Below the pieces are notes generated by a model. That model made no database searches. It was not told where the DNA came from and saw only the letters and a program-made list of their open reading frames with translations. A stretch of 64,000 bases of DNA from an uncultured beta proteobacterium (GTDB lineage: Bacteria; Pseudomonadota; Gammaproteobacteria; Burkholderiales; Burkholderiaceae_C): NCBI GenBank assembly GCA_963706685.1, contig CAVPMY010000012.1, positions 48,564-112,563 of the forward strand, written 5' to 3'. Below are positions 10,067-64,000 of this stretch, one piece after another (the stretch's first letter is position 1; each line of letters starts with the position of its first letter). Made by a program: the position numbers and the translations under genes.

Positions 10067-10094
10067 ACCAACGAGACAGGAAAGGAGCCTGCGG

Positions 10095-12502: not shown

Positions 12503-12521
12503 CGCGGCAGTACGACGCGCT

Positions 12522-13229: not shown

Positions 13230-13263
13230 GTGAACGAGATCCTTGTGAACGACGGTGCGGCGA

Positions 13264-15314: not shown

Positions 15315-15330
15315 TGCAATGTCCTTCTCG

Positions 15331-30160: not shown

Positions 30161-30309
30161 ACTTTCTTGCGCCACCCTAGATTCGGCAGCGCGGCTCAAT
30201 CGGGTGCGTAGCGCTGTCACCCGAAGAGTGCGGGTGGCCGTAGGTGCATGGGTCCGTGTCCATGCAGTGCATGCAGCGAAGCAAAGCGGTCAACTGCCGA
30301 GGCTAAGGG

Positions 30310-39016: not shown

Positions 39017-41581
<2,565 letters not shown>

Positions 41582-41670
41582 ACGCCGCACTGGCCGCGCA
41601 CAGGTTCACGCTCCTGGCCGGCGATCGCCCGCAGAATCGCGGCATCGACACCACGTCCCAGCAGTAACCC

Positions 41671-43752
<2,082 letters not shown>

Positions 43753-43835
43753 GATGAAACAGCCCCCACGCTCACTCCGTTCGCTGCCCCCCGAGGGGGC
43801 GCCAGTGCGCTTGGGACGGCCCGGCACGCACTGAC
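43753..43835 (+). repeat. GC-rich 83-nt glgX-malQ spacer, possible second copy of the matB-internal element
   Basis: AGCCCCCACG...GCCCCCCGAGGGGGCGCCAGTGCGCTTGGGACGGCCCGGCACG versus 11484-11564 AGCCCCAAGG...TCCCCCAAGGGGAGCGAGTCAACTAGGGAGCGGCCCGGCGTC. Hand alignment gives about 70% identity over ~47 nt with the same order of blocks. Confidence 0.4.
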
Positions 43836-45338
43836 ATGAACTCTCAACAACGCGCCGCCGGCGTCCTGCTGCACATCACCTCGCTGCCCGGCCCGCACGG
43901 CATCGGCGATTTCGGTGCCGACGCCTATCGCTTCGTCGATTGGCTGGCCAGCGCCAAGCAGACCCTGTGGCAATGGCTGCCGACGACGCCGGTCGGGCCC
44001 GGCGACTCGCCCTACCAGAGTCCGTCGGCGTTTGCCGGCAGCCCGCTGATGGTGGCGCTGGAGCCGCTGGTCGAACGGGGATGGTTGGACACGATCACGC
44101 CGCCGGCCGAAGGCTTCTCGAGTGCGCGCGTCGAATTCAGCCGCGTCATTCCGTGGCGCGACGAGCAGTTGCGCCGCGCCGCGCGCGGCTTTTTCTCGCG
44201 CGCCGATGCCGATCAACGCACGGCCTTCACCGCCTGGTGCCAGCAGGAAGCGCCGTGGCTCGACGACTACGCCTTGTTCATGGCCCTGTTCTACGCCCAC
44301 GGCAGCACGCCGTGGTGGCAGTGGGCGCGGCCGCTGCGCAAGCGCGACAAGAGGGCGCTGGCGCGGGCGCGCACGCAACATGCGCAGGAGATCGACTTCT
44401 GGCGCTTCGTGCAATGGTGCTGGGACACGCAGTGCCATGCGCTCAAGGCCTACGCCAACGAGCGCGGCGTGCGATTGATCGGCGACATCCCGATCTATGT
44501 CGCCGACAACAGCGCCGATGTCTGGTCGCGGCAGGATCTGTACGAACTCGACGCCGAAGGCATGCCGGTGGCGGTGGCCGGCGCGCCGCCTGACGACCTG
44601 GGCCCCGAAGGCCAGCGTTGGGGCAACCCGCTGTACAAGTGGGAGCGCATGGCCAAGGAGGACTACGCGTGGTGGGCGCTGCGCGTGCAGCATGCGCTCG
44701 AGCAGGCCGACATCGTGCGCATCGACCACTTCCGCGGCTTTGCCGGCTACTGGGTCATCCCGGCTGACAGCCAGACCGCACGCGCCGGGCATTGGGCCTC
44801 CGGGCCCGGCTTGTCGCTGTTCACGGCCATCGAAAAGCGACTCGGCAAGTTGCCCATCATTGCCGAAGACCTGGGACTGATCACCCCCGACGTGGTGGCG
44901 CTGATCGCGGCCTGCGGCTTCCCGCGCATGAAGGTGCTGATCTTCGCCTTCGGCGGTGATGGCACGCATGAGTTCCTGCCGCACAACTTCGTGCCGGCCA
45001 ACATCGTCTACACCAGCACGCACGACACCGATACCGCCCGTGGTTGGTGGGACAAGGCCAGCGAGGCCGAGCGCCACTTCGCCGGCAGCTACCTGGCCTG
45101 TGACGCCGAGAGTTTTCATTGGGCGGCGATCCGCGCCTGCATGAACTCGGTGTCCAGGCTGGCGGTGTTTGCGCTGCAGGACGTGATCGGCTTGCCGAGC
45201 GAGCACCGCATGAACCTGCCGGGCACGCTCGGGGCAGAGAACTGGAGCTGGCGCTTCGAGTGGCCGATGGTCAACGGCGATCATGCGCATGTGCTGGCAC
45301 TGATGGCGCACACCAGCGGGCGCGGGCCGGTGTCGTGA
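43836..45338 (+). CDS. malQ: 4-alpha-glucanotransferase (amylomaltase, GH77)
   Basis: Intact 500-aa ORF. GDIPIYV, RIDHFRGF, IIAEDLG. Confidence 0.9.
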   Translation: MNSQQRAAGVLLHITSLPGPHGIGDFGADAYRFVDWLASAKQTLWQWLPTTPVGPGDSPYQSPSAFAGSPLMVALEPLVERGWLDTITPPAEGFSSARVEFSRVIPWRDEQLRRAARGFFSRADADQRTAFTAWCQQEAPWLDDYALFMALFYAHGSTPWWQWARPLRKRDKRALARARTQHAQEIDFWRFVQWCWDTQCHALKAYANERGVRLIGDIPIYVADNSADVWSRQDLYELDAEGMPVAVAGAPPDDLGPEGQRWGNPLYKWERMAKEDYAWWALRVQHALEQADIVRIDHFRGFAGYWVIPADSQTARAGHWASGPGLSLFTAIEKRLGKLPIIAEDLGLITPDVVALIAACGFPRMKVLIFAFGGDGTHEFLPHNFVPANIVYTSTHDTDTARGWWDKASEAERHFAGSYLACDAESFHWAAIRACMNSVSRLAVFALQDVIGLPSEHRMNLPGTLGAENWSWRFEWPMVNGDHAHVLALMAHTSGRGPVS

Positions 45339-46709: not shown

Positions 46710-49700
46710 ATGTTCCTGTCCAACTTCAGCGTCAAGCGGCCGATCGCGATGGTCGTCATCATCATCGGCCTGATGGGCCTGGGGCTGCTCGCGCTGTCCA
46801 AGCTGCGCGTCAACCAGTTCCCGGATATCGAGCCGCCGCTGCTGGTGGTGACGATCACCTACCCCGGTGCGTCGCCCGATACCGTCGAGCGCGAGATCGT
46901 GACCCGGCTCGACAAGCTGTTTTTGTCGATCTCCGGCGTCGACCGCCTGAACGCCACGGCCCGCGAAGGCAGCGCGCAGTTCCAGATCTTCTTCGCCTTC
47001 TCCAAGAACCTGATCGAGGCCGCCGACGAGGTGCGCAACGCCATCGGCACGGTGCGCTACAAGCTGCCGCTGGAGATCCGCGAGCCGGTGATCACGCGCG
47101 CCGACCCGGGCGCGCAGCCGATCATGCAAATCGCGCTGTCGTCGACGGTGCAAAGCCATGCCGACATCTCGCGCCTGGCCGAGGACACGCTGGCCGACCG
47201 CTTTCGCGGCTTGCCGGGCGTGTCCACCGTCAACGTCAACGGCGCGCTGCGGCGCGAGCTGTCGGTGCTGCTGCACGCTGCGAAGCTGCGCGAGTATTCG
47301 ATCTCGGTGGCCGAGATCGTCAACGCGCTGCGTGCACAGAACACCACGGCGCCGGTGGGCAAGGTGCGCGGCGCGCTGGAGGACCAGAGCATCCGCCTGG
47401 TCGGCCGCATCGAGACACCGTCCGAGTTCGAGCAGATCGTGGTCCGCCGCCGCGGCAGCGAGCTGCTGCGGCTCGGCCAGGTGGCCACCATCAGCGACGG
47501 CTTCGCCGAAGTCACCGGGCACTCGTTTCGCAGCGGCCGGCCCAATGTCGGCCTGTCGGTGGCGCGCTCGCGCGATGCCAGCACGGTCAGCGTCGCCAAC
47601 GAGGTGCGCAAGACCGTCGACGAGATCCGCAGGACGCTGCCTGCCGGCAGCGCGCTCGAGGTGACGCAGGACGGCGGCAAGGACGCACAGAACAGCCTGG
47701 ACAACGTCATCCACGCGCTGGCATTCGGCGCCGTGCTGACGGTGTTCGTGGTCTACATCTTCCTCAACTCGTGGCGCTCGACGCTGATCACCGCGCTGTC
47801 GCTGCCGACGTCGGTCATCGCCAGCTTCATCGCCGTCTGGCTGGCCGGCTTCACGCTCAACTTCATGAGCCTGCTCGGCCTGTCGCTGGCCATCGGCGTG
47901 CTGATCGACGACGCGATCGTCGTCCGCGAGAACATCGTGCGCCACCTCGAGCGCGGTGCCGATCGCGTCAGCGCGGCGCTCAACGGCACCGCCGAGATCG
48001 GGCTGGCCGTGGCCGCCACCACGTTCTCGATCGTCGCCGTGTTCGTGCCGGTGGCCTTCATGGACGGCATCTCGGGGCAGTGGTTCCGGCCGTTCGCGAT
48101 CACGGTCGTGGCCTCGGTGGCGGTCAGCCTGTTCATCTCGTTCACGCTCGACCCGATGCTGTCGGCCTACTGGGGCGACCCTCCCGGCCACCACAAAGCC
48201 ACCAGACACGGCTTCAGCCGTGTTCTCCAATCCTTCAATACCTGGTTCGACCACCAGGCCGACCGCTACGGCGACGTCATCGCCTGGGCGCTGCACCACC
48301 GGCGCTGGATGTTCTTCCTGGCCGTCGCCACCTTCGCCGCGGCCATTGGGCTGCAGTTCAAGTTCGGCGGCTCGAGCTTCCTGCCGGCGTCGGACGCGGG
48401 CGTGCTGGCCATCGACGTGCGCACACCGGCTTCGTCGAGCCTGGACTACGCGCGGCTCAAGGTCGAGGCCGCGTCGACCCTGGCCCGCACGTTGGCGGAG
48501 ACCAAGGCCACCAACAGTTATGTCAACCCGAACGGCGGCCGCGTCTACGTGGACATCGGCAAGAGCATCGCGCGCAAGCGCTCGCACCGCGAGATCGCCA
48601 AGGACCTGCGCGCGCTGACGGCGCGCCTGGTCGGCGCCGAGTACGTTGTGTTGGAGGACTTCAACCTCGGCGCGCAAAAGCCGGTGCAGGTGCGCTTCAC
48701 CGGCCCCGATTCGCGCCAGCTGCTCGAGATCACCAGCGAGTTCATGGCCAGGCTGCGCCAGGTGCCGGGCGCGGCCGATGTCGGCTTGTCCGAGCAGGAC
48801 CCGCAGAACGAACTCAAGATCGAGCTCGACCGCGGCCTGGCCAACGCGCTCGGCATCTCGGCCAACGACGCCGCGCAGGCGCTGCGCGTGGCTTTTGCCG
48901 GCGTCGAGGTCGGCGACTGGGTGGACCCGACCGGTGAAACGCGCGACGTGGCGGTGCGCCTGGCGCCGGAGGACCGCGTCGATGCCAGCAACATCGAGCG
49001 CCTGCCGGTGGCCGTCGGCGGCGCCAACCAGATCGTGCCGCTCGAGCAGATTGCCACCATCACCGTCGGCAAGGCGCCGAGCCAGATCCAGCACAGCGAC
49101 GGCAAGCGCCAGATCACCGTCTCGGCCAACGCCCAGGGCCGCTCGTCGGGCGAGGTCACCGCCGACGCGCTGAAGATCGCCAACGCCATGACCTACCCGC
49201 CGGGCTACGGGCTCGAGCTGGCCGGCGGCTCGCGCGACCAGCAGGAGGTGTTCGGCCGCATGGCCGTGGCGCTGGTGGCCGGCGTGATGCTGATGTACCT
49301 GATCCTGGTCGTGCAGTTCGGCAGCTTCACCGCGCCGCTGCCGGTGATGTTCTCGCTGCCGCTGTCGCTGATCGGCGTCGTCACGGCGCTGCTGCTGACC
49401 AGCAACACGCTCAACCTGATGAGCTTCATCGGCGTCATCATGCTGATGGGGCTGGTGGCCAAGAACGCCATCCTGCTGCTCGACGCCGCACGCAACGAGG
49501 AGCGCGCCGGCGTCGAGCGCGAAGAGGCGCTGATGCACGCCGGCCGCAAGCGCTTCCGGCCGATCCTGATGACCACCTTCGCGCTGGTCGCCGGCATGAT
49601 GCCGGTGGCCATCGGCGTCGGCGAGGGCGGCGAGTTCTACCGCCCGATGGCCGTGGCCATCATCGGCGGCGTCATCACCTCGACGCTGCTGACGCTGCTC

Positions 49701-49814
49701 GTCATCCCGAGCTTCTACGACTCGATCGAGATCTGGCGCGAGAAGTTCATGCGGCTGGTGACGCGGCTGCGCGGCAAGGCGGGCGTGAGCGCGGACGTGA
49801 TCGGCGCGAAGTAG
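46710..49814 (+). CDS. RND efflux inner-membrane transporter (AcrB/AcrD/AcrF family)
   Basis: Intact 1034-aa ORF, 12 TM with two large periplasmic loops. Confidence 0.9.
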
Positions 49815-50016
49815 CAGTGCCGGTCCGCGCGCCGGCAGACCCTGCGGCGGCTGCAGCTCGAACCCAGCTGCGCCCACGGGCAGCGTGGCCGTTTCCAACA
49901 TCGACCAAGCCCTGAAAACCGGCCCTCTTTACCGAAGCTTCACACACGGCCGACATACGCGAAATGCTGCAGTGCACAATTGATCTTCACTCTACAGCCC
50001 ACGCTGATCAGCCCAC

Positions 50017-51513
50017 ATGAAGCCGAGAATGGCACCGCGCTCCGCCCGCCCGATGGGCCCAAGACTTTGGCCCATCGCCTTGGCCGTCTTGTTGACAGCC
50101 TGCGCCAGCTTGCCGGACCCCGCGGCGACAGAGATGCCGAGAGATGTGCCGACGCAATGGTCAACCGGCGCGGCACGCGCAGGTGAATCGGCCACTGACT
50201 TGTCCGCCTGGTGGCAACGCTTCGACGATCCCGCCCTCGCCGACTTGATCACCAAGGCACTCGAGGCCAACACCAGCGTGCAGAGCGCGCAGGCGGCGCT
50301 GCGCCAGTCACGTGCGCTGGCCGAGGTGGCGCGAGCGGGCCTGAGCCCATCGGTGAGCGTTTCGGGATCGGCGCAACGCAGTCGATCGGACAGCAGCGGC
50401 ACCAGCAATGCGTTCAGGGCCAGCGTGGGCGCCAGCTGGGAGCCCGACCTCTTCGGTGGCAACCGCGCTGCGGCCAACGCCAGCGAAACCGACGCGCAGG
50501 CCTCGGCCGCCAGCCTGGCGAGCGTGCAGGTATCCCTCGCCGCCGAGGTGGCGTCCAGCTACATCAACCTGCGCGGCCTGCAGGCCCGGCTGGCCATTGC
50601 GCGCAGCAATCTGGCCACACAAACCGAAACGCTGCAGATCACACGCTGGCGTGCCCAGGCCGGTCTGGTCTCGTCGCTGGACGTGGAGCAGGCAGTCAGC
50701 GCCGCCGAACAGACGCAGGCCCAGATTCCCGCGCTGCAAACCAGCGTGGCCCAGACCTTGAACGCGCTGGCCGTGCTGACCGGGCAAGCCCCGGGTACGT
50801 TGAACACCACCTTGGGCGACGCCGCACCGATCCCGCCCGCCCCGGCCGATCTGGCCCTGGCCTTTCCCGCCGACACGCTGCGCCAGCGGCCCGACGTGCG
50901 CGCCGCCGAGCTGAAGGTGCGCTCGGCGTGGTCGCGCGTGGCGGTGGCCGATGCGGCGCGCTACCCGAGCTTCAGCCTGAGTGGCTCGCTCGGCCTTTCG
51001 TCGCTGACGCTGGGCAGCCTCACCGACAGCGCGTCGCTGGTCAGGTCGCTGCTGGCCAGCGTGTCGGCGCCGCTGTTCGACGGCGGCGCAGCCCAGGCCC
51101 AGGTGCGTGCCCAGGAAGCGGCGCTGGACCAGGCCCGTGCGAGCTACCGCGACACCGTGCTCACCGCACTGCAGGACGTGGAGGACGCACTGGTCGCCAT
51201 CCAGGGTGACAGCGAGCGTCTGATGCGGCTGCAGGCCGCTGCCACCGCCGCGGCCAACGCCGAGCTGCTGGCACGCCAGCGCTACGAGAGCGGCCTGATC
51301 GATTTCGCCACCGTGCTCGGCACGCAGCGCACCCTGCTGTCGGCCCAGGACAGCGTGGCCATCACGCAGGCCAGCCTGAGTGCCAACCACGTTCGTCTGT
51401 ACAGGGCGCTGGGCGGTGGCTGGACGCCCGACAGCGCATCCGGCGCCCCCATCGCCCCCGTCGCCACCTCGCCAGCGACGGTCCGCCGGACGAGCCACGC
51501 CGTTGCGAACTGA
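50017..51513 (+). CDS. outer-membrane efflux lipoprotein (NodT/OprM family)
   Basis: Intact 498-aa ORF. Lipobox LLTAC. Two-repeat OMF architecture. The start may be at a later Met. Confidence 0.85.
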   Translation: MKPRMAPRSARPMGPRLWPIALAVLLTACASLPDPAATEMPRDVPTQWSTGAARAGESATDLSAWWQRFDDPALADLITKALEANTSVQSAQAALRQSRALAEVARAGLSPSVSVSGSAQRSRSDSSGTSNAFRASVGASWEPDLFGGNRAAANASETDAQASAASLASVQVSLAAEVASSYINLRGLQARLAIARSNLATQTETLQITRWRAQAGLVSSLDVEQAVSAAEQTQAQIPALQTSVAQTLNALAVLTGQAPGTLNTTLGDAAPIPPAPADLALAFPADTLRQRPDVRAAELKVRSAWSRVAVADAARYPSFSLSGSLGLSSLTLGSLTDSASLVRSLLASVSAPLFDGGAAQAQVRAQEAALDQARASYRDTVLTALQDVEDALVAIQGDSERLMRLQAAATAAANAELLARQRYESGLIDFATVLGTQRTLLSAQDSVAITQASLSANHVRLYRALGGGWTPDSASGAPIAPVATSPATVRRTSHAVAN

Positions 51514-51529
51514 CACCCACTGCCACGCC

Positions 51530-52834
51530 ATGAACAAGAAAACCGCCCCTCCCACCGACCTGCAAACCCTGCTGGGCGAGGACCATCCGCCGCGCTGGTG
51601 GCAGCGCAGTTCGCTCTGGATCGGCCTGGTCGCCCTGCTGATCGTGGCCGGCGGTGTCTACTACTGGCAGGCACAAAGCGCCAGCAAGGCCGCGCCCGCT
51701 TACGTGACCACCGAGCTGCGCAAGGGCCATCTCACGCTCAGCGTCTCGGCCAACGGCACGCTGCAGCCGACGCGCTCGGTGAATGTCGGCAGCGAGCTCT
51801 CGGGCACGGTCAAGCGCGTGCTGGTGGACGTGAACGACCGCGTCAAGGCTGGCCAGGTGATGGTGGAGCTGGATGCGTCGAAGTTCAGCGACCAGGTGAC
51901 CCGCTCGCGCGCCTCGCTCGCCGCCGCGCAGGCCCAGCTCGCGCAGAGCAAGGCCACCGTCACCGAATCCCGCGCCAGCCTGGCGCGCCTGGAGGAAGTC
52001 TTCAAGCTCTCGGGCGGCAAGGTGCCTTCGGCCGACCGAACTCGACACCGCGCGCGCCGCGCTGGCGCGCGCCGAGGCCAACGAAGCCAGCGCCGGTGCC
52101 AACGTCGGCGTGGCCAAGGCCACGCTCTCGACGGATGAGACCAATCTCTCCAAGGCCTCGATCCGCTCGCCCATCGACGGCGTGGTGCTCAGCCGCTCGG
52201 TCGATCCGGGCAACGCGGTGGCCGCGTCGCTGCAGGCCGTGACCTTGTTCACCGTGGCCGAGAACCTGACCCAGCTGCAGCTCGAAGCCAGCGTCGACGA
52301 GGCCGACGTGGGCTCGGTGAAGGAAGGGCAGAAGGCCAGCTTCACCGTCAGCGCCTACCCCTCGCGCCGTTTCCCGGCCACCATCAGCCGCGTGGCCTTC
52401 GGCTCGACCACCACCAACAACGTGGTGACCTACGTGGCCACGCTCGACGTGGACAACCAGGACCTCGCCCTGCGCCCCGGCATGACGGCGGTGGCCACCA
52501 TCGTCGCGACCGAGCGCAACGATGTGCTGCTGGTGCCCAACACCGCGCTGCGCTTCTCGCCCACCACGGCCGCCGCGGCGAGCACCTCTTCGGGCGGAAG
52601 CAGCATCCTGTCCAAGATGATGCCGCGCCCGCCGCGCAGCAGCAGCACCAAGGTGGCCGGCACCGAGAGCAAGGCCCCGGGCACGCGCCAGATCTGGGTG
52701 CTGCAGGACGGCCAGCCGGTGGCCGTGCAGGTGCAGACCGGCATCAGCGACGGCCGCATGACCGAGGTCAGCGGCGACCAGCTCAGGCCCGGCATGGCCG
52801 TCATCACCGACCAGCGCAGCGCAGGCGCCGCATC

Positions 52835-52838
<4 letters not shown>
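51530..52838 (+). pseudogene. HlyD/MacA-family periplasmic adaptor, 1 frame break
   Basis: MNKKTAPPTDLQ...LEEVFKLSGGKVPS / ELDTARAALARAEANEAS...IRSPIDGVVLSR... in two frames. Break near 52038. Confidence 0.8.
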
Positions 52839-53604
<766 letters not shown>

Positions 53605-53606
53605 CC

Positions 53607-54815
53607 ATGTGGCTCAACACGCTCCTGCTCGCGTTGCGTTCGATCCGGCGCAACCTGATGCGCTCCTTCCTCACCATCCTGGGCATCGTGATCGGCGTCA
53701 GCGCGGTCATCACGATGGTCACGGTGGGCAACGGCGCCACCGTGTCGGTGCAGAACCAGATCTCGGGGCTGGGCACCAACCTGTTGCAGGTCCGCCCGGG
53801 CCAGCGCATGGGTCCGGGCAGCGGCAGTTCCAGCGCGCCCTTCTTCAAGGACGGCGACGCCGAGGCCATCGCCACCCAGATCGGTGGCGTCGCGGCCGCA
53901 GCCCCCCAATCGCGCACGGGCGGCACGCTGGTGGCCAACGGCCGCAACTGGGCCAGCACCATCACCGGCAGCACCAACGAGTGGCTCAGCATCGGCAACT
54001 GGACGCTGGCCCAGGGGCGCGAGTTCTCCGACGCCGAGCAGCGCGCCGGCGCGGCGGTCTGCATGATCGGCGAGACCGTGCGGCGCGAACTGTTCGGCAG
54101 CAGCCCGGCGCTGGGCGAGTCGCTGCGCGTCAAGCAGATCAGCTGCGAGATCATCGCCGTGCTCGGCTCCAAGGGGCAGGGGTCGTTCGGCAACGACCAG
54201 GACGACCTGGTCTTCATGCCGATCAAGACGCTGCAGCGTCGCATCACCGGCAATACCCAGGTCAACGACTTGCTCGTGTCGATGGCCGATGGCAGCGACA
54301 GCACGCGCGTCAAGGCCAGCATGACGCAGCTGCTGCGCGAGCGCCGCAAGCTGGCCGACACCGACGAAGACAACTTCAACGTGCTCGACACCAAGCAGCT
54401 GGCCGATACGCTCTCGGGCACGACCAAGGTGATGACCACGCTGCTCGGTGCCGTGGCCGCGGTGAGCCTGCTGGTGGGCGGCATCGGCATCATGAACATC
54501 ATGCTGGTCAGCGTCACCGAGCGCACCCGCGAGATCGGCCTGCGCCTGGCCATCGGCGCGCTGGAGCGCGAGGTGCTGCTGCAGTTCCTGATCGAGGCCG
54601 TGGTGCTGGCCGCGCTGGGCGGACTGATCGGCATCGTGCTCGCCACCGCCGCCTCGATCGGCCTGTCGGGCTTGATGAACGTGCCCTACGCGTTCAACCC
54701 CGGCGTCAACCTGCTGAGCTTCGTCTTCTCGGCCGGCATCGGCGTGCTGTTCGGCTACTTCCCGGCCCGCCGGGCGGCGCGGCTGAACCCGATCGACGCG
54801 CTGCGGCACGAGTGA
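53607..54815 (+). CDS. ABC exporter permease (FtsX/MacB-type)
   Basis: ATG 53607, three nt after the ATPase TGA. Intact 402 aa. MacB periplasmic domain plus FtsX TM helices ([21 protein letters not shown]). Confidence 0.85.
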
Positions 54816-54893
54816 GTGACGGGCCGCGCCGCCGCGTCACGGACCCCCTCGTTGCAGGTGGTCACCGAGGCGCCCGGCACAAGCGCTCGTTCG

Positions 54894-56708
54894 TCAGTCC
54901 TCACCGCGACTGGCTGCATTGGTCGCCGGCGCGGGCGCGAAGCAGACGACGCTCCAACCCGCCTCCAGCTTGAAGCGTTGCTCCTTGGAGTTCAGGCGCA
55001 GCGTGCCGCTCGGTGAGACGCCCGCCAGCAACAGCCAGTCTTGGCCAGGTTTGCCCATGCGGGCCTTCAACGCGGCCCAGCCATAGCTCGGGGTGAGCTT
55101 GGACGTCTGAATGGTCCAGCCGTCGTCCATGTGCTGGTGCAGGACCTGGAAGTTCGCTTGCGGGTCGAAGGCGTCGTAGCCGCGTTGCTGCAGCGACATG
55201 CTTCTCAGCCCCTGGCCGGAGGCCTTGTGGGTGGCGAGCTGGAAGGTGCGGTGGTGGCCGAACCTGCGGCCCTGGGCCTTGCAGACCAGCGCGTTGTAGA
55301 AGTCGTTGTCGGTGGCGCACAGCAGGTGGTTCAGGTGCTGTGCTTCCAATGTGTGCTCAGCGTGATCGGACAGGATTTCGCCGTAGTAGACCTCGAGGCC
55401 CGCCATGCGCGCTTCCTTCAAGTGGTGGTACACACCGTCGACGATCAAGACCTCGATTCCGAGCTTGTTCAGCGCTTTCGCCAAGGCGCAGGACCAGCGC
55501 GTCGCACCGACGATCAGCAGGCCGTTGTCGCTCTTGGCGGCCAGGCCCAGCCGCCGGGCCAGGCGGCCGATGCTCAGGCCATGCGCGAGCACCGTGGCAA
55601 TGATGACCAGGAAGGTCACGGGCAGCAGCAGTTCGGCGTCCGGGTAGCCGGCAGCCACCAGCGCCGGCCCGAAGATGCCTGCCGTGGCGGCGGCGACGAT
55701 GCCGCGGGGCGCGATCCATGCGAGCAGCAGCTTGTCCTGCTTGCGCATCGGCGCGCCGATCGTGGCCAGGCCGATGGCGAGCGGCCGCACGATCAACAGG
55801 ATCGCCAGCACGAACCACAGCACGCGCCAGTTCAGCAGCTCGAGCTGGCTGACGTGCAGCTGTGACGGAATGACGATGAACAGCACCGACAACAGCAGCA
55901 CGGTCAGGCTTTCCTTGAAGCGCTGCAGCACTTCGCGCTCGGTCAGCTTCATGTTGCCGACGACGACGCCCATGACGGTGACGCTGAGCAGGCCGGCCTC
56001 GTGCTGCACCAGGTTGCTGACCCAGTAGACCGCCAGCACCAGCACCATCAGGATCGGCGGCTTCAGATGCTCCGGGACCACACCCCGCCGGTACATCCGG
56101 CCGGTGATCCACCCGCCCAGCCCGCCGAGCAGTGCAGCCGCGGCAACGGCAGCGGCCAGGCCGCTCAAGGTGTCGGCCAGCCCGCCGCCGGAAATGGTCA
56201 GGTACTGGAAGGTCAACACGGCCAGCAACACGCCCACGGGGTCGTTGACGATGCCTTCCCACTTCAGCAGCGAGGCCGACTCCTTGTTCAGCCGCGCCTG
56301 CCGCAGCAGCGGCAAGATGACGGTGGGGCCGGTGACCACCAGGATCGAGCCGAGCACCACGGCCACCGGCCAGCTCAAGCCGGCGAGGTAGTGGGCCGCC
56401 AGGCTGCCCAGCAACCAGGCCAGCGGCGGACCGACGATGGTCAAGCGGCCGATGCCATGGCCGACGCGACGAAACTCGGCGAGCTTCAGATCCATGCCGC
56501 CTTCGAACAGGATGATGGCCACGCCCAGGCCGATCAGATCGGCCAGTTCGGTCCGCGACAGCTGCAGTTCGATGACACCGGTCACCGGCCCCAGCACGAG
56601 CCCGGTGGCGATGAGCACGACGATGGCCGGCAGACCGAGCCGCCACGAGACCCACTGGCTGGCCAGCCCGGCCGCCAGCACGATCAGAAGCAGGGTTGCC
56701 GCATCCAT
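54894..56708 (-). CDS. CPA1-family Na+(K+)/H+ antiporter with C-terminal RCK/TrkA-N-like domain
   Basis: Intact 604-aa ORF. About 12 TM N-terminal exchanger domain. LLIVGATRW Rossmann-like segment. Confidence 0.85.
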   Translation of the reverse strand: MDAATLLLIVLAAGLASQWVSWRLGLPAIVVLIATGLVLGPVTGVIELQLSRTELADLIGLGVAIILFEGGMDLKLAEFRRVGHGIGRLTIVGPPLAWLLGSLAAHYLAGLSWPVAVVLGSILVVTGPTVILPLLRQARLNKESASLLKWEGIVNDPVGVLLAVLTFQYLTISGGGLADTLSGLAAAVAAAALLGGLGGWITGRMYRRGVVPEHLKPPILMVLVLAVYWVSNLVQHEAGLLSVTVMGVVVGNMKLTEREVLQRFKESLTVLLLSVLFIVIPSQLHVSQLELLNWRVLWFVLAILLIVRPLAIGLATIGAPMRKQDKLLLAWIAPRGIVAAATAGIFGPALVAAGYPDAELLLPVTFLVIIATVLAHGLSIGRLARRLGLAAKSDNGLLIVGATRWSCALAKALNKLGIEVLIVDGVYHHLKEARMAGLEVYYGEILSDHAEHTLEAQHLNHLLCATDNDFYNALVCKAQGRRFGHHRTFQLATHKASGQGLRSMSLQQRGYDAFDPQANFQVLHQHMDDGWTIQTSKLTPSYGWAALKARMGKPGQDWLLLAGVSPSGTLRLNSKEQRFKLEAGWSVVCFAPAPATNAASRGED

Positions 56709-56842
56709 GAGGGTTGGCTGTCCTCAGGCACGCCGCCTGGAACGCATGCCAGCGTGATCGCGGTTCAGAACGCGGCGCTCGGCTCGACCATCAGCTTGCC
56801 GGATCTGTCTTTGAACAAGGGCGCCTCCTGGGCAAAAAAGAA

Positions 56843-56858
56843 GGTCAACGCGTTGACC
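56843..56858. promoter_or_regulatory. perfect 16-bp palindrome GGTCAACGCGTTGACC in the antiporter/c-subunit divergent region
   Basis: Followed by an AT-rich TTGAATATAT. Conserved in the mirror copy at 62685-62700. Function unknown (operator candidate). Confidence 0.35.
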
Positions 56859-57101
56859 TGGATGCTTGAATATATCGGGCCGCCCTGCGGCGTCGGCAGG
56901 GCCGGCTTCGCAGATGCTTCGCCAACCTTGACCTTTCGACGGTCATCGCAGGTCGAAGTCAACAGGTCTGCGCTGCCACTCGCTGGCGGCCCCGATGCAA
57001 CTCCCTTGCCCCGGCGAGATGTTGCGCGTTCCGGCGGCCACCGCGCCGACGCTACCTGCGAGGTAATCGACAGCATGAACGGCGCGCGTCACAGTACCCC
57101 C

Positions 57102-57336
57102 ATGGCGCACATAGCAAATTCTCCCGCTGGCCGTCGCGCTCGTGATCGGCATCCCCGCGTGTGGATCGTGCATCGGCATCGGCCTGGCGTCGATGAAGCT
57201 TCTCGAAGGCGTGGCGCGCCAGCCCTTGCTCGCGAGCGAGCTGCAGATCAAGTACTTCCTGGCCGTGGGCGTCACTGACGGCGCCTTCATCATCGCCACC
57301 GGCATCGGCCTGTGGTTTGCTACGGCCAACCCGTTC
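57102..57336 (+). pseudogene. F-type ATPase c-subunit-like gene, left copy; N-terminal frameshift, cut off at the GC switch
   Basis: ATG 57102 (MAHIANS...) is out of frame with IGIPACGSCIGIGLASMKLLEGVARQPLLASELQIKYFLAVGVTDGAFIIATGIGLWFATANPF (frame of ORF 57142..57468). c-subunit hallmarks LEGxARQP loop and helix-2 Asp. Confidence 0.7.
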
Positions 57337-58299
57337 CCGAAAGAAAAGGATTATCTGACCAGTGCCTCACCCTTTGCTCAAAAAGGTGCACCAGTACAAG
57401 CACCTATTGGATTTTCTTATGATCCAAACCCAATCGGAAATCTATGGCCTCTAATCCACTCGCAGTAGACAAAACTCTTATTATCGGAGGCAGACGCGCG
57501 GCAATTACAGCTCCCTCAGATATTTGTTTTGGTTGGAAAACATAGACCCCGAGCTCAACTGGAATAGATATAGAGGAACTACGTAAAAGCAGTACGCTTA
57601 CAAGAATGGCTCGAAAAAAATGCAAGAGCAGGATCACGTCAACGTGTCAATCGAAGCACACTTCGCCGAACGAGTACCGGATTATACAGCTCAACGCCCC
57701 GTTTATCTTGGTGGCGGAAAAGTCCCTGTACAAATTTCGGAAGTATTACAAACATCTACTTCCGGGATACGCAAAATGTTCTCAGTCTCTGTAACTCCTC
57801 AAGGAAATATGAGGACACGGGATTGCTGTAGCTAAACACCAATCGGTTCAAAATCGCTTTACCGACATGGATGGGTAATCGTATTATGTCCGTTACTGCA
57901 GCACCTTGAACGTTGTTGGACACGCCTCGATAAATTCGATTATATGTGGCCGGAATTCGCTCAACTTGAGAACAGGAAGTTCTTAACAAAGAAGCCTACT
58001 TCGATTGGAGTAACCTTGAAAAAGATGATGATACCTTCGGTTATCAATCTCGCTATGCCGACCTAAAATATCGGAACTCACAAGTCTGGAAACTTCAAAG
58101 ACACATTAGCCTACTGGCAATTCCCGCTAAGGAATATCGCCTCTGCGCCTGCACTAAACTCTGACTTTGTTACATCAAATCCGCGAGAGGATATATTCGC
58201 GGTTATCGACGAGGACGTCGACAACCTTTGATGTTCAATATTTTCAACAATGTCAAAGCTATTCGCAAGATGCCTTATCACAACGTGCCTACTCTTTAG
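57337..58299 (+). pseudogene. Microviridae major capsid protein VP1/F, C-terminal ~55%, left copy, many frame breaks
   Basis: KDYLTSASPFAQKGAPVQAPIGF; IEAHFAERVPDYTAQRPVYLGGGKVPVQISEVLQTS; VTPQGNM; DDTFGYQSRYADLKYRNSQV; ends NVPTL-TAG at 58297-99. About 40% G+C. Confidence 0.75.
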
Positions 58300-58484
58300 A
58301 CCTGCGCAACTTACACAGCATCCTTTTACACTAAACACAATTTCTCTGTTGCCTCACGGTCACAGGGCAGGAGTGTTTTTACACGACGCACACCCGGGAG
58401 ATCCGTGCGGATGCCTCGCCAGAAATAAATGGAGCTACAGCACCATGTTATTTTGGTGAAGCTATAACTACAAAAAACAACACA

Positions 58485-58968
58485 ATGGAAAATCAATATC
58501 GCAAATGTCGCCTTATGTTCGGCCACTAACTGATGAGATGCTCGAAACACAACACACAGCCTCCTTACAATACGTAATGGGAGAGGCTTATTCTATTCAG
58601 GAACTCATCGACAAATAGTCCCATTGATATGTCAAAATCAAACAGGGTTACACTATGCAGATGATGCCGGATTATGATACGTTCGTTCCAGACCCGGACT
58701 TCGATCTACAGATGCTGAAAACTTGGCTAAAAATTCAGCAGAAACAATCGCGGAAGCCAAGCTCAAAATGGACGAGTCCTCCAAGAAAAGAAAGAAGCAT
58801 TCTGGGGACACGGAAGCGAGTAAACCAAAGTGAAAGTAACCTCAGAAAAAGCTTAACTCTTACCGAGTACGAAAATCCAAAAAACGAGCTTAAAACGCCC
58901 AATGATTAAAAGCCTCACACTTATTGACAGGATCGACAAAAAAAGAACGTATCTTTCACTCAAAATAA
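58485..58968 (+). pseudogene. small phage protein (possible internal scaffolding protein), left copy, frame-broken
   Basis: MENQYRK..., DYDTFVPDPDFDL, Lys/Glu/Ser-rich tail. Better preserved in the right arm. Confidence 0.4.
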
Positions 58969-58975
58969 ACTAAAA

Positions 58976-59677
58976 TATGCCTCGGAATCTGGTGGACAAA
59001 TAGCCCTACAAGGTGGCGTAGATATCGCCTCAGGAGTACTCGGAAAAACTCGTTCAAAAAAAACGCAACATTAGATTACAGAAAGAAGCCAACTTAGAAC
59101 TTGCAAATTATGCATACGATAAAGACCTTTCTAATGTGGGGATCTTCAGAACCTTTATAATTCTCCGCAAGCAGACCCGCTTTAAACAAGCAGGTCTAAA
59201 TCCTAACTTAATATACGGACAAGGAAATGCTGGAAATGCATCCTCTTGTCCCCAAGAATGGACAGGTGCAACAATCACTACATACGACACGAGTACCAAA
59301 ACTAAACATACTTGGAAACGCAAACAATCAGTGACAAGTGGAAGCTGGATTGCAAAAAAACCGAAGCTGAAACAGACAGGATCAAAGCAACTGATACTAC
59401 AGTCGGTATCTATAGATGAGCAAATAAATATGTGGAACTTAACAATGCTCGCCTTGCCTTTTGGCAAACTGGCGGAAAACCAATGTGTCGTAGGTATGGC
59501 AAAACCTTGCTGTTAACCCGTATAACTATGACTATTGCAACTCGATGTTAATGCAGCGCAAGTTGGATTCACAACTAATTATCAACAACCTAACAGCAAA
59601 AAAACAAATGTTGTTAGATGCAAACATCGAGAATGCATGGCAAAACCTAAAAATGAACCAACGGAAATATGCATGCA
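58976..59677 (+). pseudogene. Microviridae minor capsid/pilot protein VP2, N-terminal part, left copy, frame-broken
   Basis: ELANYAYDKDLS..., RFKQAGLNPNLIYGQGNAGNAS, KLDSQLIINNLTAKKQMLLDANIENAWQNLKMNQ. Confidence 0.65.
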
Positions 59678-59777
59678 CAATTCCCATCAACAAGGATGTA
59701 GCTTTTCCGATTCCGACTGCTCCGAGTGCTGTCTTTGCGGCTGTATTGACCATACCGAATCCTTGTTGATAGGGATA
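59678..59777. other. unique ~100-nt centre (loop) of the inverted repeat
   Basis: Arms end at ...gaaatatgcatg (59677) and resume at catgcatatttc (59778). On the minus strand the loop continues the VP2 frame (WYPYQQGFGMVNTAAKTALGAVGIGKATSLLMGI). Confidence 0.8.
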
Positions 59778-60480
59778 CCATGCATATTTCTGTTGGTTCA
59801 TTTTTAGGTTTTGCCATGCATTCTCGATGTTTGCATCTAACAACATTTGTTTTTTTGCTGTTAGGTTGTTGATAATTAGTTGTGAATCCAACTTGCGCTG
59901 CATTGACGTTCCGAGATTGCGATAGTCATAGTTATACGGGTTTAGCACAGTTTTGCCATACCTACGAGACATTGGTTTTCCGCCAGTTTGCCAAAAGGCA
60001 AGGCGAGCATTGTTAAGTTCCACATCTATTGCTGTAGAGAGCATACTGACTGCTGAAGAGCAATCCAGTTCTTTCAATCCTGTCTGTTTCAGCTTCGGTT
60101 TTTTCGAATCCAGCTTCCACTTGTCGCTGATTGTTATACATTCCGAGTATGTTTAGTTTTGGTACTCGTGTCGTATGTAGTGATTGTTGCACCTGTCCCA
60201 TTCTTGGGGACGAGGATGCATTTCCAGCATTTCCTTGTCCGTATATTAAGTTAGGATTTAGACCTGCTTGTTTAAAGCGGGTCATTTGTGCTTGCGGAAC
60301 AAATGGCGATAAAGGTTCTGAAGATGCCACATAGAAAGGTCTTTATCGTATGCATAATTTGCAAGTTCTAAGTTGGCTTCTTTGTAATCTAAATGATCGT
60401 TTGGAACAAATTCTCCGACTACTCCTGAGGATATCTACGCCACCTTGTAGGGCTATTTGTCCACCGGGTCCGAGAGGCAT
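59678..60480 (-). pseudogene. Microviridae VP2 pilot protein, right copy plus loop; truncated at the fold-back point
   Basis: ATG 60480. ...ELANYAYDKDLSMW, SPFVPQAQMTRFKQAGLNPNLIYGQGNAGNASS, ...MQRKLDSQLIINNLTAKKQMLLDANIENAWQNLKMNQQKYAWYPYQQGFGMVNTAAK. A few frame breaks. Confidence 0.7.
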
Positions 60481-60488
60481 ATTTTAGT

Positions 60489-61020
60489 TTATTTTGAGTG
60501 AAAGATACGTTCTTTTTTTGTTGATCCTGTCAGAAAGTGTAATATACCATCAAGTCGTTGGTATATTACACTATGTGTGAGGCTTTTAATCATTGGGCGT
60601 TTTAGCTCGTTTTTTGGACTTTCGTCCTCAGTTAAGGTTGAGCTTTCTGAGGTTATTTTTGCTTCCGTTTTACTCGCTTCAGTGTCCCCAGAATGCTTCT
60701 TTCTTTTCTTGGAGGACTCGTCCATTTTGAGCTTGGCTTCCGCGATTGTTTCTGCTGAATCTTTAGCCAAGTTTTCAGCATCTGTTAGATCGAAGTCCGG
60801 GTCTGGAACGAACGTATCATAATCCGCATCATCTGCGTAGTAACCCTGTTTGATTTTGACGAGCGTGTCTATTGGGAATCCGTTGTTTGGGGGATGGTTC
60901 GAATAGTTCCTGAATAGAATAAGCCTCTCCCGGTACGGTAAGAGAGGGCTGTGTGTTGTGTTCGAGCATCTCATCAGTTAGTGGCCGAACATAAGGCGAT
61001 TTGCGATATTGATTTTCCAT
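60489..61020 (-). pseudogene. small phage protein (possible scaffolding protein), right copy, 1 frame break
   Basis: MENQYRKSPYVRPLTDEMLEHNTQPSLTVPGEAYSIQELF / ...GFPIDTLVKIKQGYYADDADYDTFVPDPDFDLTDAENLAKDSAETIAEAKLKMDESSKKRKK... Confidence 0.4.
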
Positions 61021-61210
61021 TGTGTTGTTTTTTGTAGTTATAGCTTCTCACTGAAAATAACATGGTGCTGTAGCTCCATTTATTTCTGGCGAGGCATCCG
61101 CACGGATCTCCGGCGTGCGTCGTGTAAAAACACTCCTGCCCTGTGACCGTGAGGCAACAGAGAAAAAGTGTTTAGTGTAAAAGGATGCTGTGTAAGTCAC
61201 TGCGCAGCTG

Positions 61211-62206
61211 CTAAAGAGTAGGCACGTTGTGATAAGGCATCTTGCGAATAGCTTTGACATTGTTGAATACTTGAACATAAAGGTTGTCAACATCCTCGTC
61301 GATAACCGCGAATATATCCTCTCGCGGATTTGATGTAACAAAGTCAGAGTTTAGTGCAGGCGCAGAAAGGCGAAGATCCCTTCTGAAGTGCCAGTAGGCT
61401 AATGTGTCTTTGAAGTTTCCAGAGACTTGTGAGTTCCGATATTTTAGGTCGGCATAGCGAGATTGATAACCGAAGGTATCATCATTGTTTTCAAGGTTAC
61501 TCCAAATCGAAGTAGGCTTCTTTGTTAAGAACTTCCTGTTCTCCAAGTTGAGCGAATTCTGGCCACATGTTCGAACGGATCGAGGTGTGTCCAACAACGT
61601 TGAAGGTGCTGCTGATATGCAGAGCGTGGGGTAACGGACATAATACCGATTACCCATCCATGTTCGGTAGAAAAGCGAGATTTGAACCGATTGGTGTTTC
61701 CTACAGCAATACCGTGTCCACTCATATTTCCTTGAGGAGTTACAGAGACTGAGAGGTTTCTGTATCCGGAAGTAGATGTTTTCTGTAATACTTCCGAAAT
61801 TTGTACAGGGACTTTTCCGCCACCAAAGATAAACGGGGCGTTGAGCTGTATAATCCGGTACTCGTTCGGCGAAGTGTGCTTCAATAAATACTCACGTAAA
61901 ACGTGATCCTGCTCTTGCATTTTTTTGAGCCATTCTTGTAAGCGTACTGCTTTACGTAGTTCCTCTATATCTATTCCAGTTGACTCGGGGTCTATGTTTT
62001 CCAGTACGTAAAGCTGAACCTGAGGGAGCTGTAATTGCCGCGCCGTCTGCTCCGATAATAAGAGTTTTGTCTACTGCGAGTGGATTGCCGAGGCCATCAG
62101 TTCCGATTGGGTTTGGATCATAAAGAAATCCAATAGGTGCTTGTACTGGTGCACCTTTTTGAGCAAAGGGTAAGGCACTGGTCAGATAATCCTTTTCCCA
62201 GTTTCG
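61211..62206 (-). pseudogene. Microviridae major capsid protein VP1/F, C-terminal part, right copy, several frame breaks
   Basis: NWEKDYLTSALPFAQKGAPVQAPIGF; TPQGNMSGHGIAVGNTNRF..EHGWVIGIMSVTPRSAYQQ; NDDTFGYQSRYADLKYRNSQVSGNFKDTLAYWHF...NPREDIFAVIDEDVDNLYVQVFNNVKAIRKMPYHNVPTL. Confidence 0.8.
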
Positions 62207-62441
62207 GGAACGGGTTGGCCGTAGCAAACCACAGGCCGATGCCGGTGGCGATGATGAAGGCGCCGTCAGTGACGCCCACGGCCAGGAAGTACTCGATCTG
62301 CAGCTCGCTCGCGAGCAAGGGCTGGCGCGCCACGCCTTCGAGAAGCTTCATCGACGCCAGGCCGATGCCGATGCACGATCCACACGCGGGGATGCCTATT
62401 ATGAGCGCGACGGCCAGCGGGAGAATGTCTATGTGCGCCAT
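62207..62441 (-). CDS. F-type ATPase c-subunit-like gene, right copy; intact frame but fused to phage DNA at its last codons
   Basis: MAHIDILPLAVALIIGIPACGSCIGIGLASMKLLEGVARQPLLASELQIEYFLAVGVTDGAFIIATGIGLWFATANPF, then reads into VP1-derived sequence. Contains ATA ATA codons, unusual for this GC content. Confidence 0.6.
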
Positions 62442-62833
62442 GGGGGTACCGCGACGCGCGCCGTTCATGCTGTCGATTACCTCGCAGGTAGCGTCGGCGC
62501 GGTGGCCGCCGGAGCGGCGACACATCTCGCCGGGGCGGAAACTGCATCGGGGGCCGCCAGCGAGTGGCAGCGCAGACCTGTCGACTTCGACCTGCGATGA
62601 CCGTCGAAAGGTCAAGGTTGGTGAAGCATCTGCGAAGCCGGCCCTGCCGACGCCGCAGGGCGGCCCGATATATTCAAGCATCCAGGTCAACGCGTTGACC
62701 TTCTTTTTTGCCCAGGAGGCGCCCTTGTTCAAAGACAAGTACCGCAAGCTGATGGTCGAGCCGAGCGCCGCGTTTGAACCGCGATCACGCTGGCATGCGT
62801 TCCAGGCGGCGTGCCGAAGGACAGCCAACCCTC

Positions 62834-64000
62834 ATGCATGCCGCCACCCTGCTGCTGATCGTGCTGGCCGCCGGGCTGGCCAGCCAGTGGCTGGCCTGGC
62901 GGATCCGGCTGCCGGCGATCGTCGTGCTGATCGCCGCCGGCCTGGTGCTCGGGCCGGTGCACCGGCGTCATCGAGCTGAGCTGTCGCAGGACCGAACTGA
63001 CCGAGCTGATCGGCCTGGGCGTGGCGATCATCCTGTTCGAAGGCGGCATGGACCTGAAGCTGGGCGAGTTCCGCCGCGTCGGCCACGGCATCGGCCGGCT
63101 GACCATCGTCGGCCCGCCGCTGGCCTGGCTGTTCGGCAGCCTGGCGGCGCACTACGTCGCCGGCCTGAGCTGGCCGGTGGCCGTCGGTGCTCGGCGCGAT
63201 CCTGGTCGTCACCGGCCCGACCGTGATCCTGCCGCTGCTGCGCCAGGCGCGGCTGAACAAGGAATCGGCCTCGCTGCTGAAGTGGGAAGGCATCGTCAAC
63301 GACCCGGTCGGCGTGCTGCTGGCGGTGCTGACCTTCCAGTACCTGACGATCGGCGGCGGGCTGGCGCGACACCGCTGATGCGGCGCTGGGCGCGGCGATC
63401 GCCGCCGCCGCCGTGCTCGGCGGGCTCGGCGGCTGGGTCACCGGCTGGCTGTACCGGCGCGGCGCGCGTGCCCGAGCACCTGAAGGCGCCGATCCTGATG
63501 GTGCTGGTGCTGGTGGTCTACTGGGCCAGCAACCTGGTGCAGCACGAGGCCGGCCTGCTCAGCGTCACGCTGATGGGCGCTGGTGATCGGCAACATGAAG
63601 CTGGTCGAACTGCGAGTCGCTGCAGCGCTTCAAGGAGAACCTGACGGTGGTGCTGCTGTCGGTGCTGTTCATCGTCATCCCGTCGCAGCTGCAGGCCAGC
63701 CAGCTCGACGCTGCTGGACTGGCGCGTGCTGCTGTTCGTGCTGCGCGATCCTGTTCGTCGTGCGGCCGCTGACGATCGGCGCTGGCGACGATCGGCGCGC
63801 CGATGCGCAGCGAGGACAAGCTGCTGCTCGGCTGGATCGCGCCGCGCGGCATCGTCGCCGCGGCCACCGCCGGCATCTTCGGGCCGGCGCTGGTGGCCGC
63901 CGGCTACCCCGACGCCGACACTGCTGCTGCCGGTGACCTTCGCGGTCATCATCGCCACCGTGCTGGCGCACGGCCTGAGCATCGGCCGCGCTCGCGCGCC
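62834..64000 (+). pseudogene. diverged, heavily frame-broken inverted copy of the CPA1 antiporter (5' ~1.2 kb; continues beyond the window)
   Basis: MHAATLLLIVLAAGLASQWLAWRIRLPAIVVLIAAGLVLGPV / AIILFEGGMDLKLGEFRRVGHGIGRLTIVGPPLAWLFGSLAAHY / ILVVTGPTVILPLLRQARLNKESASLLKWEGIVNDPVGVLLAVLTFQYLTI... scattered over all three frames. Confidence 0.8.

Follow-up and report, generated by a model that had tools for sequence, protein, structure and literature searches.

A palindromic metagenome contig joining Burkholderiales and microvirus DNA: very probably an artefact of a folded-back read

The window analysed here, a stretch of 64,000 nucleotides of metagenomic DNA, ends in what appears to be its own mirror image, with bacterial genes and a piece of a microvirus repeated in reverse complement around a common centre. 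The question that this locus raises is whether any organism carries such a palindrome or whether it arose between the DNA and the assembled contig. We consider it very probable that the palindrome is an artefact of an error-prone long-read metagenome assembly, introduced via a chimeric folded-back read, and we are correspondingly confident that no organism carries it and that the feature is not real biologically.

The symmetry itself is plain. An inverted-repeat search of the 64-kb window gave 45 collinear arm pairs that together form a single anti-diagonal; the earlier note, which had described the right end of the window as a mirror image, had named the lack of an anti-diagonal through about 59,727 as the observation that would overturn its claim, and the anti-diagonal is present. 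In a gapped global alignment base 55,553 pairs with base 64,000, every 250-nt bin is 80-97% identical and the right arm exceeds the left in length by a measurable amount. According to both methods the two arms are reverse complements, the same locus read on opposite strands and collinear up to one turn-round. The features of the region are, from left to right:

54,894-56,708, minus strand: intact Na+/H+ (CPA1) antiporter of 604 aa (Pfam Na_H_Exchanger and TrkA_N)
55,553-59,698: left arm, as far as its partner is visible in the window (collinear inverted matches)
56,709-56,894: natural intergenic region upstream of the antiporter, holding a conserved 16-bp palindrome; twin at 62,649-62,833
56,895-57,102: 208-nt segment with no counterpart in the relative L085 or in natural c-subunit loci; twin at 62,441-62,648, 93% identical
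57,103-57,336, plus strand: orphan ATP-synthase-c-like (atpE-like) gene (Pfam PF00137, 34.5 bits)
57,337-58,299, plus strand: Microviridae major capsid protein fragment, residues ~185-517 of ~517; twin at ~61,211-62,205, minus strand
58,655-58,909, plus strand: small phage ORF between the capsid and pilot genes, fragmented; better-preserved twin of 161 aa at 60,489-60,974, minus strand
58,960-59,698, plus strand: Microviridae DNA pilot protein (VP2) fragment, start approximate, cut by the fold-back; twin from 59,759 to ~60,480, minus strand
59,699-59,758, minus strand: apex loop of ~60 nt, continuing the pilot-protein ORF of the right arm
59,759-64,000: right arm, running past the end of the window (collinear inverted matches; contains the exact ORF of P0124)
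62,834-64,000, plus strand: frameshifted twin of the antiporter N-terminus, with 120 substitutions and 17 insertions relative to the left copy

All four pairs of landmarks listed in the earlier note (57,336/62,206, 57,102/62,441, 56,843-58/62,685-700 and 56,708/62,834) were recovered, as was its order of features: pilot (VP2) fragment, small ORF, capsid (VP1) fragment, c-subunit, antiporter. The GC content drops from 0.68 to 0.42 at 57,336 and climbs back at 62,206; the 16-bp palindrome GGTCAACGCGTTGACC, for which no chance matches are expected, occurs at 56,843-56,858 and again at 62,685-62,700; and the ATG of the antiporter lies at 56,708 on the minus strand in the left arm and at 62,834 on the plus strand in the right. 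The one dimension that had to be revised is that of the apex, previously taken to be a 100-nt loop (59,678-59,777): the arms extend inward to 59,698 and 59,759, leaving a unique loop of about 60 nt. A search of the apex for the core sequences of the ONT and SMRTbell adapters, allowing up to 3 mismatches, found no match. The distance between the switch points is 60 nt, and both arms are error-laden near the apex, which masks any overlap microhomology. The right end mirrors the left as a structure but not as a plain copy: the antiporter differs by roughly 10% natural-looking substitutions and 17 single-base insertions. The identity of the arms is uneven, at 94-97% in the intergenic DNA and the c-subunit gene, about 89% in the antiporter and about 87% in the phage part; the excess of the first over the phage part would be unexpected if both parts were equally raw, and it requires either an error that depends on composition or polishing that was only partial.

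A public metagenome contig of 120,488 nt (NCBI/ENA) contains the window. That same contig encodes P0001, identical to the left antiporter at 604 of 604 residues, as well as P0123, which is exactly the left fusion ORF of c-subunit and capsid, P0124, which is exactly a right-arm ORF, and nine of the ten other window ORFs tested. Exact-pattern scans of viral and metagenome collections gave no match to the tested 48-mer or to a phage 57-mer. A cluster look-up revealed one further product of the contig, P0364 (102 aa), which is identical at 95 of 95 positions to residues 534-628 of the gene at 46,710-49,814 and is frameshifted thereafter. The source gene lies 11 kb to the left of the palindrome centre and its matched stretch is single-copy within the window, so that the twin lies outside and the mirror continues for ~7 kb or more beyond base 64,000. 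A search with the malonyl-CoA decarboxylase N-terminus for a far-left twin returned neither a twin nor the window's own protein. The centre of the palindrome falls at window base 59,727, and 120,488 equals 2 x 59,727 + 1,034, a mid-contig fit that is exact only if window base 1 is contig base 1. With its centre then at about half of the contig, the whole contig is probably a single palindrome of 2 x 60 kb, an extent that the earlier note could not have seen. The flanking content is that of an ordinary chromosome (RNase P RNA, glycogen genes, transporters), and the left-arm side also holds split genes: ECH at ~10,490, GD_AH_C at ~15,760 and the N-terminus of MacB.

The core of the palindrome is a truncated microvirus fragment, a partial genome of 2.4 kb whose GC content of 42% is 26 points under the host's 68%. 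It carries the capsid gene from residue ~185 to its end, the small ORF and part of the pilot protein gene, in the same order as in PQ006317, and the capsid homology begins exactly at the junction between bacterial and phage DNA. Neither a replication-initiator gene nor an integration function was found in the phage core. Over ~1 kb the capsid gene contains 8-9 frameshifts in the left arm and 6-7 in the right, mostly at different sites, a pattern that points to raw-read quality in both arms. An integrated Microviridae prophage would look different: this genome is incomplete and has no initiator, its ORFs are not intact and the frameshifts differ between the arms.

Between the phage and the antiporter the DNA bears other signs of joining. 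Homology to L085, a natural relative that is 95% identical and in which the structure is absent, ends at 56,894 in the left arm and, in mirror image, at 62,649 in the right; upstream of its antiporter L085 has an unrelated gene, CDO_I. The 208-nt segment that follows (56,895-57,102) probably contains a further chimeric junction. The left copy of the atpE-like gene is frameshifted at ~57,115, lacks only its last codon and stop, and continues in frame into the capsid fragment; its twin at 62,206-62,441 on the minus strand is intact. Natural 79-aa homologues of this c-subunit are 88-92% identical and end in ...ANPFK/Q. The nucleotide homology stops at 57,335, the phage junction falling at the last codon, and a synteny comparison shows that the natural homologues are orphan genes in varied contexts.

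The two copies of the antiporter are of quite different character. The left copy is 95% identical to P0122 and carries no more than 2 private substitutions where column conservation is at least 90%; on sequence grounds we regard it as natural, belonging to the host genome of what we call population A. The right copy is frameshifted by its 17 single-base insertions. Its mismatches with the left copy fall at codon positions 3, 1 and 2 in the numbers 76, 33 and 11, and the 120 substitutions comprise 82 synonymous and 38 non-synonymous changes. At 88 of the 120 substituted sites the right copy has the base of the majority of the relatives; its GC3 is 0.98, it shows no deviation at any of 141 columns conserved at 90% or more, and it is closer than the left copy to every one of 56 relatives. 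Relative to P0002 the alleles alternate site by site, the right copy agreeing with the left at 102 sites and with P0002 at 72. None of the 17 insertions is homopolymeric, the expected share matching a neighbour being 53%, and 13 of them are the allele of natural relatives at the flanking site, placed beside the left-arm allele (null 22%). The intergenic DNA next to the right antiporter resembles the left arm, and the change is abrupt, right at the start codon.

Random sequencing error alone was rejected as the origin of the right antiporter, whose mismatches are biased to the third codon position, avoid all conserved columns and move towards the relatives. Taking the right arm as a clean orthologue of a single related organism B fits the three-way tree with P0002 and P0122, but it leaves unexplained the insertions that keep both alleles, the left-arm-like intergenic DNA and the RND-gene twin that is identical to the left copy; it is kept only as a variant of the main model. 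The right antiporter is best read as a consensus of mixed related populations, a feature that the earlier note had missed.

How could such a contig have been formed? We infer a physical fold-back molecule, together with its chemistry, the sequencing platform, any amplification step and the competition for reads described below. One or a few reads would have come from a concatenated molecule that ran from the Burkholderiales chromosome of population A through the orphan atpE-like piece and 2.4 kb of microvirus to a turn in the 60-nt loop, and then back through the same sequence on the opposite strand. Such molecules are made by polymerase strand switching or self-priming in whole-genome amplification, and also in library preparation. 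Fold-back reads occur with both ONT and PacBio (PMC12870357); after ONT ligation preparation, inverted repeats make up 0.18-7.33% of reads (PMC13141652); whole-genome amplification gives palindromic reads that lead to inverted duplications in assemblies (PMC6218980); and inverted chimeras account for 85-91% of MDA chimeras (PMC9984789). The assembler would have followed the hairpin round and retraced the genomic region it had just covered, probably yielding the 2 x 60 kb palindromic contig. The phage core, covered by the chimeric read(s) only, would have kept raw-read quality in both arms, while the duplicated right arm would have competed with the true left arm for reads. The right antiporter would then have been polished with A reads and with cross-mapping reads of related populations into a mosaic consensus, which may sometimes have retained both alleles side by side as 1-nt insertions and hence frameshifts. 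Read competition is a plausible cause of the mosaic right arm; a switch of the layout to reads of one related organism B, in its place, would explain most of the same data. Two observations count against the folded-back read: the arms are more alike in the intergenic and c-subunit DNA than in the phage part, and three junctions within 3 kb are dense for random chimerism.

Of the three explanations that the earlier note had put forward, the data favor the first, a fold-back/snap-back chimera that entered the assembly, given the deposited contig, a truncated and frameshifted phage core joined within genes, the loss of L085 homology at 56,894 and a centre near mid-contig if contig and window share their first base. 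A purely in-silico mis-join, in which spurious overlaps joined the contig both with its reverse complement and with phage reads and no physical fold-back was involved, appears improbable to us, despite being the strongest competitor. It would accommodate arms of probably 60 kb, far beyond what one read need cover, a right arm that is a mosaic of populations, and the other consensus errors of the assembly. However, bacterium and phage meet at the identical base in either arm, and phage coding sequence runs unbroken through the 60-nt loop, which together look like a single real molecule read through its turn-round; moreover, bacterial DNA of 68% GC and phage DNA of 42% GC offer no common repeat to seed a false overlap. 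A real inverted duplication, by palindromic amplification in the chromosome around an integrated, decaying microvirus remnant, was the second explanation, and we hold it to be very improbable. Both arms are indeed present in the deposited contig, and they are diverged rather than identical, but the divergence is not clock-like: non-coding DNA and the c-subunit gene are 94-97% identical, whereas synonymous sites of the adjacent gene differ by ~10%. The arms are thus not equally aged, and it is the frameshifted right copy, with alleles of related organisms that appear even as insertions, which is nearer to all 56 relatives than the intact left one. The phage genes are cut mid-gene, with no replication-initiator or integration function and a GC content of 42% against 68%, L085 has an unrelated gene at that position, and the centre lies at the contig mid-point (exactly so only if window and contig begin at the same base). 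Long perfect palindromes are, in addition, cleaved in bacteria by SbcCD.

We attach a similarly slight probability to a real hairpin formed in vivo, by template switching during microvirus replication to give a host-phage recombinant, followed by snap-back synthesis and capture by sequencing. Read-through of the covalently closed hairpin telomere of a linear replicon can legitimately give a double-length palindromic contig, and a contig-wide symmetry (from 120,488 ~ 2 x 59,727) and an apex without adapter are what it would produce. This apex, however, sits within a pilot gene that is truncated and joined to capsid and atpE-like genes, themselves truncated, and is not telomere-like; the arms should match apart from errors, yet the antiporter differs by natural-looking alleles, and the flanks are ordinary chromosomal sequence. 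We regard this reading as extremely improbable, and the same is true of a non-natural design, either a DNA language model copying its context in reverse complement or splicing by hand. A model-generated or synthetic sequence was seriously considered, as the drift of the right arm to the family consensus and its GC3 of 0.98 resembled a generative prior leaking into the copy. What rules it out, unless the deposited record is itself synthetic, is that a single public contig encodes exactly both arm-specific ORFs, the fusion ORF and nine more ORFs of the window (P0001, P0123 and P0124 among them); the contig being public, deliberate synthesis or model generation is excluded. The third explanation of the earlier note, a non-natural origin, consequently survives in the sense of a laboratory or assembly artefact and fails in the sense of a designed sequence.

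If the palindrome is the product of a folded-back read, its biological importance is none and its practical value is one of database hygiene. The public MAG contig probably has about double its true length, all of its genes being duplicated, and these duplicates inflate contamination and duplication estimates. In the contig a microvirus also appears, falsely, to be physically linked to a Burkholderiales chromosome; virus-host or prophage-mining pipelines could infer integration from this, and the frameshifted, mosaic pseudo-proteins of the right arm (e.g. P0123, P0124 and P0364) enter protein databases. On the other hand, the signature of the right arm, relatives' alleles together with non-homopolymer 1-nt insertions that keep both alleles, may help to recognise a mixed-population consensus elsewhere.

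The locus resembles several known systems to varying degrees. Integrated Microviridae prophages have been reported in Bacteroidota and Enterobacterales, and here, too, microvirus capsid and pilot genes adjoin bacterial genes. Unlike such prophages, this is a partial genome of 2.4 kb, cut within the capsid and pilot genes and devoid of an initiator, with 6-9 frameshifts per kb, a GC content 26 points below the host's and an in-frame fusion to the end of a host gene. The hairpin-telomere replicons of Borrelia and of the phage N15 type give palindromic double-length contigs in which, as here, a sequence and its own reverse complement are joined head to head; the present apex, in contrast, is chimeric phage coding sequence, and what separates the two arms is alleles of related organisms. 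Among the templates that MDA strongly over-amplifies are small circular ssDNA phages. The inverted chimeras and palindromic reads of phi29 MDA (PMC9984789; Pacasus, PMC6218980) share with this locus the inverted orientation and the short switch distance (a 60-nt loop), as well as the joining of unrelated templates and the artificial inverted duplications in long-read assemblies. Typical MDA junctions have 5-13 nt of overlap microhomology, which is unscorable in this error-laden palindrome, and a chimeric distance below 10 kb, here 60 nt. Fold-back artefact reads from ONT and PacBio (Heinz, Meyerson & Li 2026, PMC12870357; PMC13141652) arise in library preparation, and their two halves, like the two arms here, map to one locus on opposite strands, often with no adapter between them; their breakpoint is near the centre, as it would be here if the window starts at the first base of the contig. 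Whereas those are single reads, this is an assembled contig, whose arms were probably grown to ~60 kb by the assembly and one of which would have been re-polished into a mosaic.

As the earlier note had described, the window ends in an imperfect palindrome of ~8.4 kb. An inverted-repeat search of the window gave 45 arm pairs, all collinear on a single anti-diagonal, and when the left side is aligned globally, with gaps, to the right side in reverse complement, 55,553 falls opposite 64,000 and the arms are 80-97% identical in every 250-nt bin. The GC content falls from ~0.68 to 0.42 at 57,336 and goes back up at 62,206. All four landmark pairs proposed from the sequence are correct; the inner limits of the arms require revision, since they go deeper, to 59,698 and 59,759, leaving a loop of ~60 nt. 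From the centre outwards, the arms carry:

Inner part: Microviridae DNA pilot gene (part), small ORF, major capsid gene (C-terminal two thirds)
Outer part: ATP-synthase-c-like gene (Pfam PF00137; 57,103-57,336, +; twin 62,206-62,441, -), ~400 nt of non-coding sequence, start of a CPA1 Na+/H+ antiporter (left copy 54,894-56,708, -; right copy 62,834-64,000, +)

The genes of the phage piece are ordered as in bajarodmic virus 217 (PQ006317), and the piece lacks a replication-initiator gene. Capsid homology starts at residue ~185, coinciding exactly with the GC switch, and the c-subunit ORF, which lacks only its final codon, reads in frame into the capsid. In frameshift-aware alignments with three natural capsid proteins, the left arm requires 8-9 frameshifts and the right arm 6-7. 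Since these are numerous and mostly at different positions in the two arms, both arms are independent, raw-quality copies of a single real phage sequence.

The palindrome is present in the public databases. The antiporter of a 120,488-nt contig (P0001, NCBI and ENA) is identical to the left copy at 604/604 residues, and two further proteins, both from a contig of that same length, are exactly the c-subunit/capsid fusion ORF of the left arm (P0123) and the right-arm ORF (P0124). Nine of ten further window ORFs, between 16.9 and 51.5 kb, are also exact products of this contig. The window thus belongs to a deposited metagenome contig, chimera included. A generated sequence, which had seemed possible from the drift of the right arm towards the family consensus, was dismissed on the strength of these exact matches. 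The mirror had been said to be still running at base 64,000, and this is borne out by a 102-aa protein of the same contig (P0364), which is identical at 95/95 positions to residues 534-628 of a 1034-aa protein (46,710-49,814) and then goes out of frame. As that stretch occurs only once in the window (48,309-48,593), a second, damaged copy must lie outside it, and the right arm reaches to at least ~71 kb in window coordinates. The contig, at 120,488 nt, exceeds twice the centre coordinate by 1,034 nt, and the right arm is measurably longer than the left. On the simplest reading, which is probably correct, the window makes up the first 64 kb of a contig palindromic from end to end.

The notion of a mirror copy holds for the collinear reverse-complement arms, but plain mirroring does not, as the two antiporter copies diverge at 120 aligned sites. 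These differences, among which G<->C changes dominate, are distributed 76/33/11 over codon positions 3, 1 and 2, and 82 are synonymous. Although frameshifted, the right copy is nearer than the intact left copy to 56/56 natural relatives at the protein level, with no deviation at the 141 columns conserved at ≥90%; at these columns the left copy, a normal orthologue, carries two private substitutions, a number that lies in the natural range. The natural relative P0002 is 78% identical to the left copy and 89% to the right, which alternates site by site against it (left allele at 102 sites, P0002 allele at 72). The single-base insertions of the right copy are all non-homopolymeric (17/17; 53% expected to equal a neighbour), and 13 of the 17 match an allele found in natural relatives at a flanking position (22% under a random model); at such insertions the right-arm consensus retained both alleles. 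Left-identical sequence gives way abruptly to relative-like sequence at the antiporter start codon, and between the arms the identity of the non-coding and c-subunit parts is 94-97%. Such a pattern agrees with a consensus to which mixed read populations contributed during polishing, homologous reads being cross-mapped, and fits neither a duplication diverging over time nor plain sequencing noise.

A 95% identical antiporter (P0122, JGI) leads to a natural locus, L085, that is 92.7% identical to the window over 54,850-56,894. There the homology ceases, as it does at the mirrored point, 62,649, in the right arm; beyond 56,894, L085 has a cysteine dioxygenase gene at the place taken in the window by 208 unmatched nt and the orphan c-subunit gene. 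Since the natural c-subunit homologues (88-92% identity) are likewise orphans, in differing surroundings, 56,894 may mark either a third junction of the chimera or a rearrangement of natural origin. The c-subunit-like gene is one of a Burkholderiales family of 79-80-aa ATP-synt_C proteins outside atp operons; among the neighbours of the family at three loci (L086-L088) are an MLTR_LBD regulator, an RND membrane-fusion protein and small ORFs. Upstream of the antiporter lies a perfect 16-bp palindrome, GGTCAACGCGTTGACC (56,843-56,858; twin 62,685-62,700), kept in L085 (~9,860) while the adjoining intergenic bases vary; it is probably an operator of a dimeric regulator. The window also has a TolC-like/MacA/MacB efflux cluster (OEP, MacB_PCD and FtsX domains) at 49,815-54,850, the L085 counterpart of which (11,860-14,035) contains just two small ORFs; this difference is a natural insertion/deletion between related genomes.

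Several genes in the left arm are split by frameshifts:

9,972-10,873: enoyl-CoA hydratase, break at ~10,490, Pfam profile positions 4-118 and 120-248 in different frames
15,311-16,804: altronate/galactarate dehydratase, C-domain split, break at ~15,760
52,835-52,970: MacB, N-terminus divided among three frames at 52,850-52,965, around the Walker A region
3,920-6,568: solute-binding protein and permease, probably broken, at 4.4-6.4 kb

Such splits indicate residual indel errors throughout the contig, a pattern typical of a modest-depth, long-read-only assembly. Elsewhere the window contains a full-length bacterial class A RNase P RNA (29,831-30,162, +; 204.8 bits) and a glycogen/starch cluster (39,017-45,338, +), whose starch phosphorylase, isoamylase and 4-alpha-glucanotransferase take their names from JGI cluster mates; a search of the 64 kb gave no tRNA genes.

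The explanation that the earlier note had put first, a fold-back chimera carried into the assembly, is supported; the palindrome is not a biological feature. A long read would have been obtained from a molecule in which host DNA was joined to a microvirus fragment and which then folded back; in assembly, the path would have passed the hairpin and returned over the region already covered. The phage core, having no other coverage, would have kept its raw quality, and the redundant arm would have gathered mixed reads, producing the mosaic. A scan of the apex for ONT and SMRTbell adapter cores gave no match at up to 3 mismatches, and the loop is continuous pilot-gene sequence on the - strand; both observations point to a physical strand switch rather than to unsplit reads. 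The finding is of use as a warning about a public contig that is chimeric and probably doubled, with a phage-host link that is false. Comparable artefacts are documented: adapter-less fold-back reads are known from both ONT and PacBio (PMC12870357), 0.18-7.33% of the reads from ONT ligation preparations are inverted repeats (PMC13141652), MDA chimeras are chiefly of the inverted type (PMC9984789), and palindromic reads arising after amplification lead to false inverted duplications in assemblies (PMC6218980).
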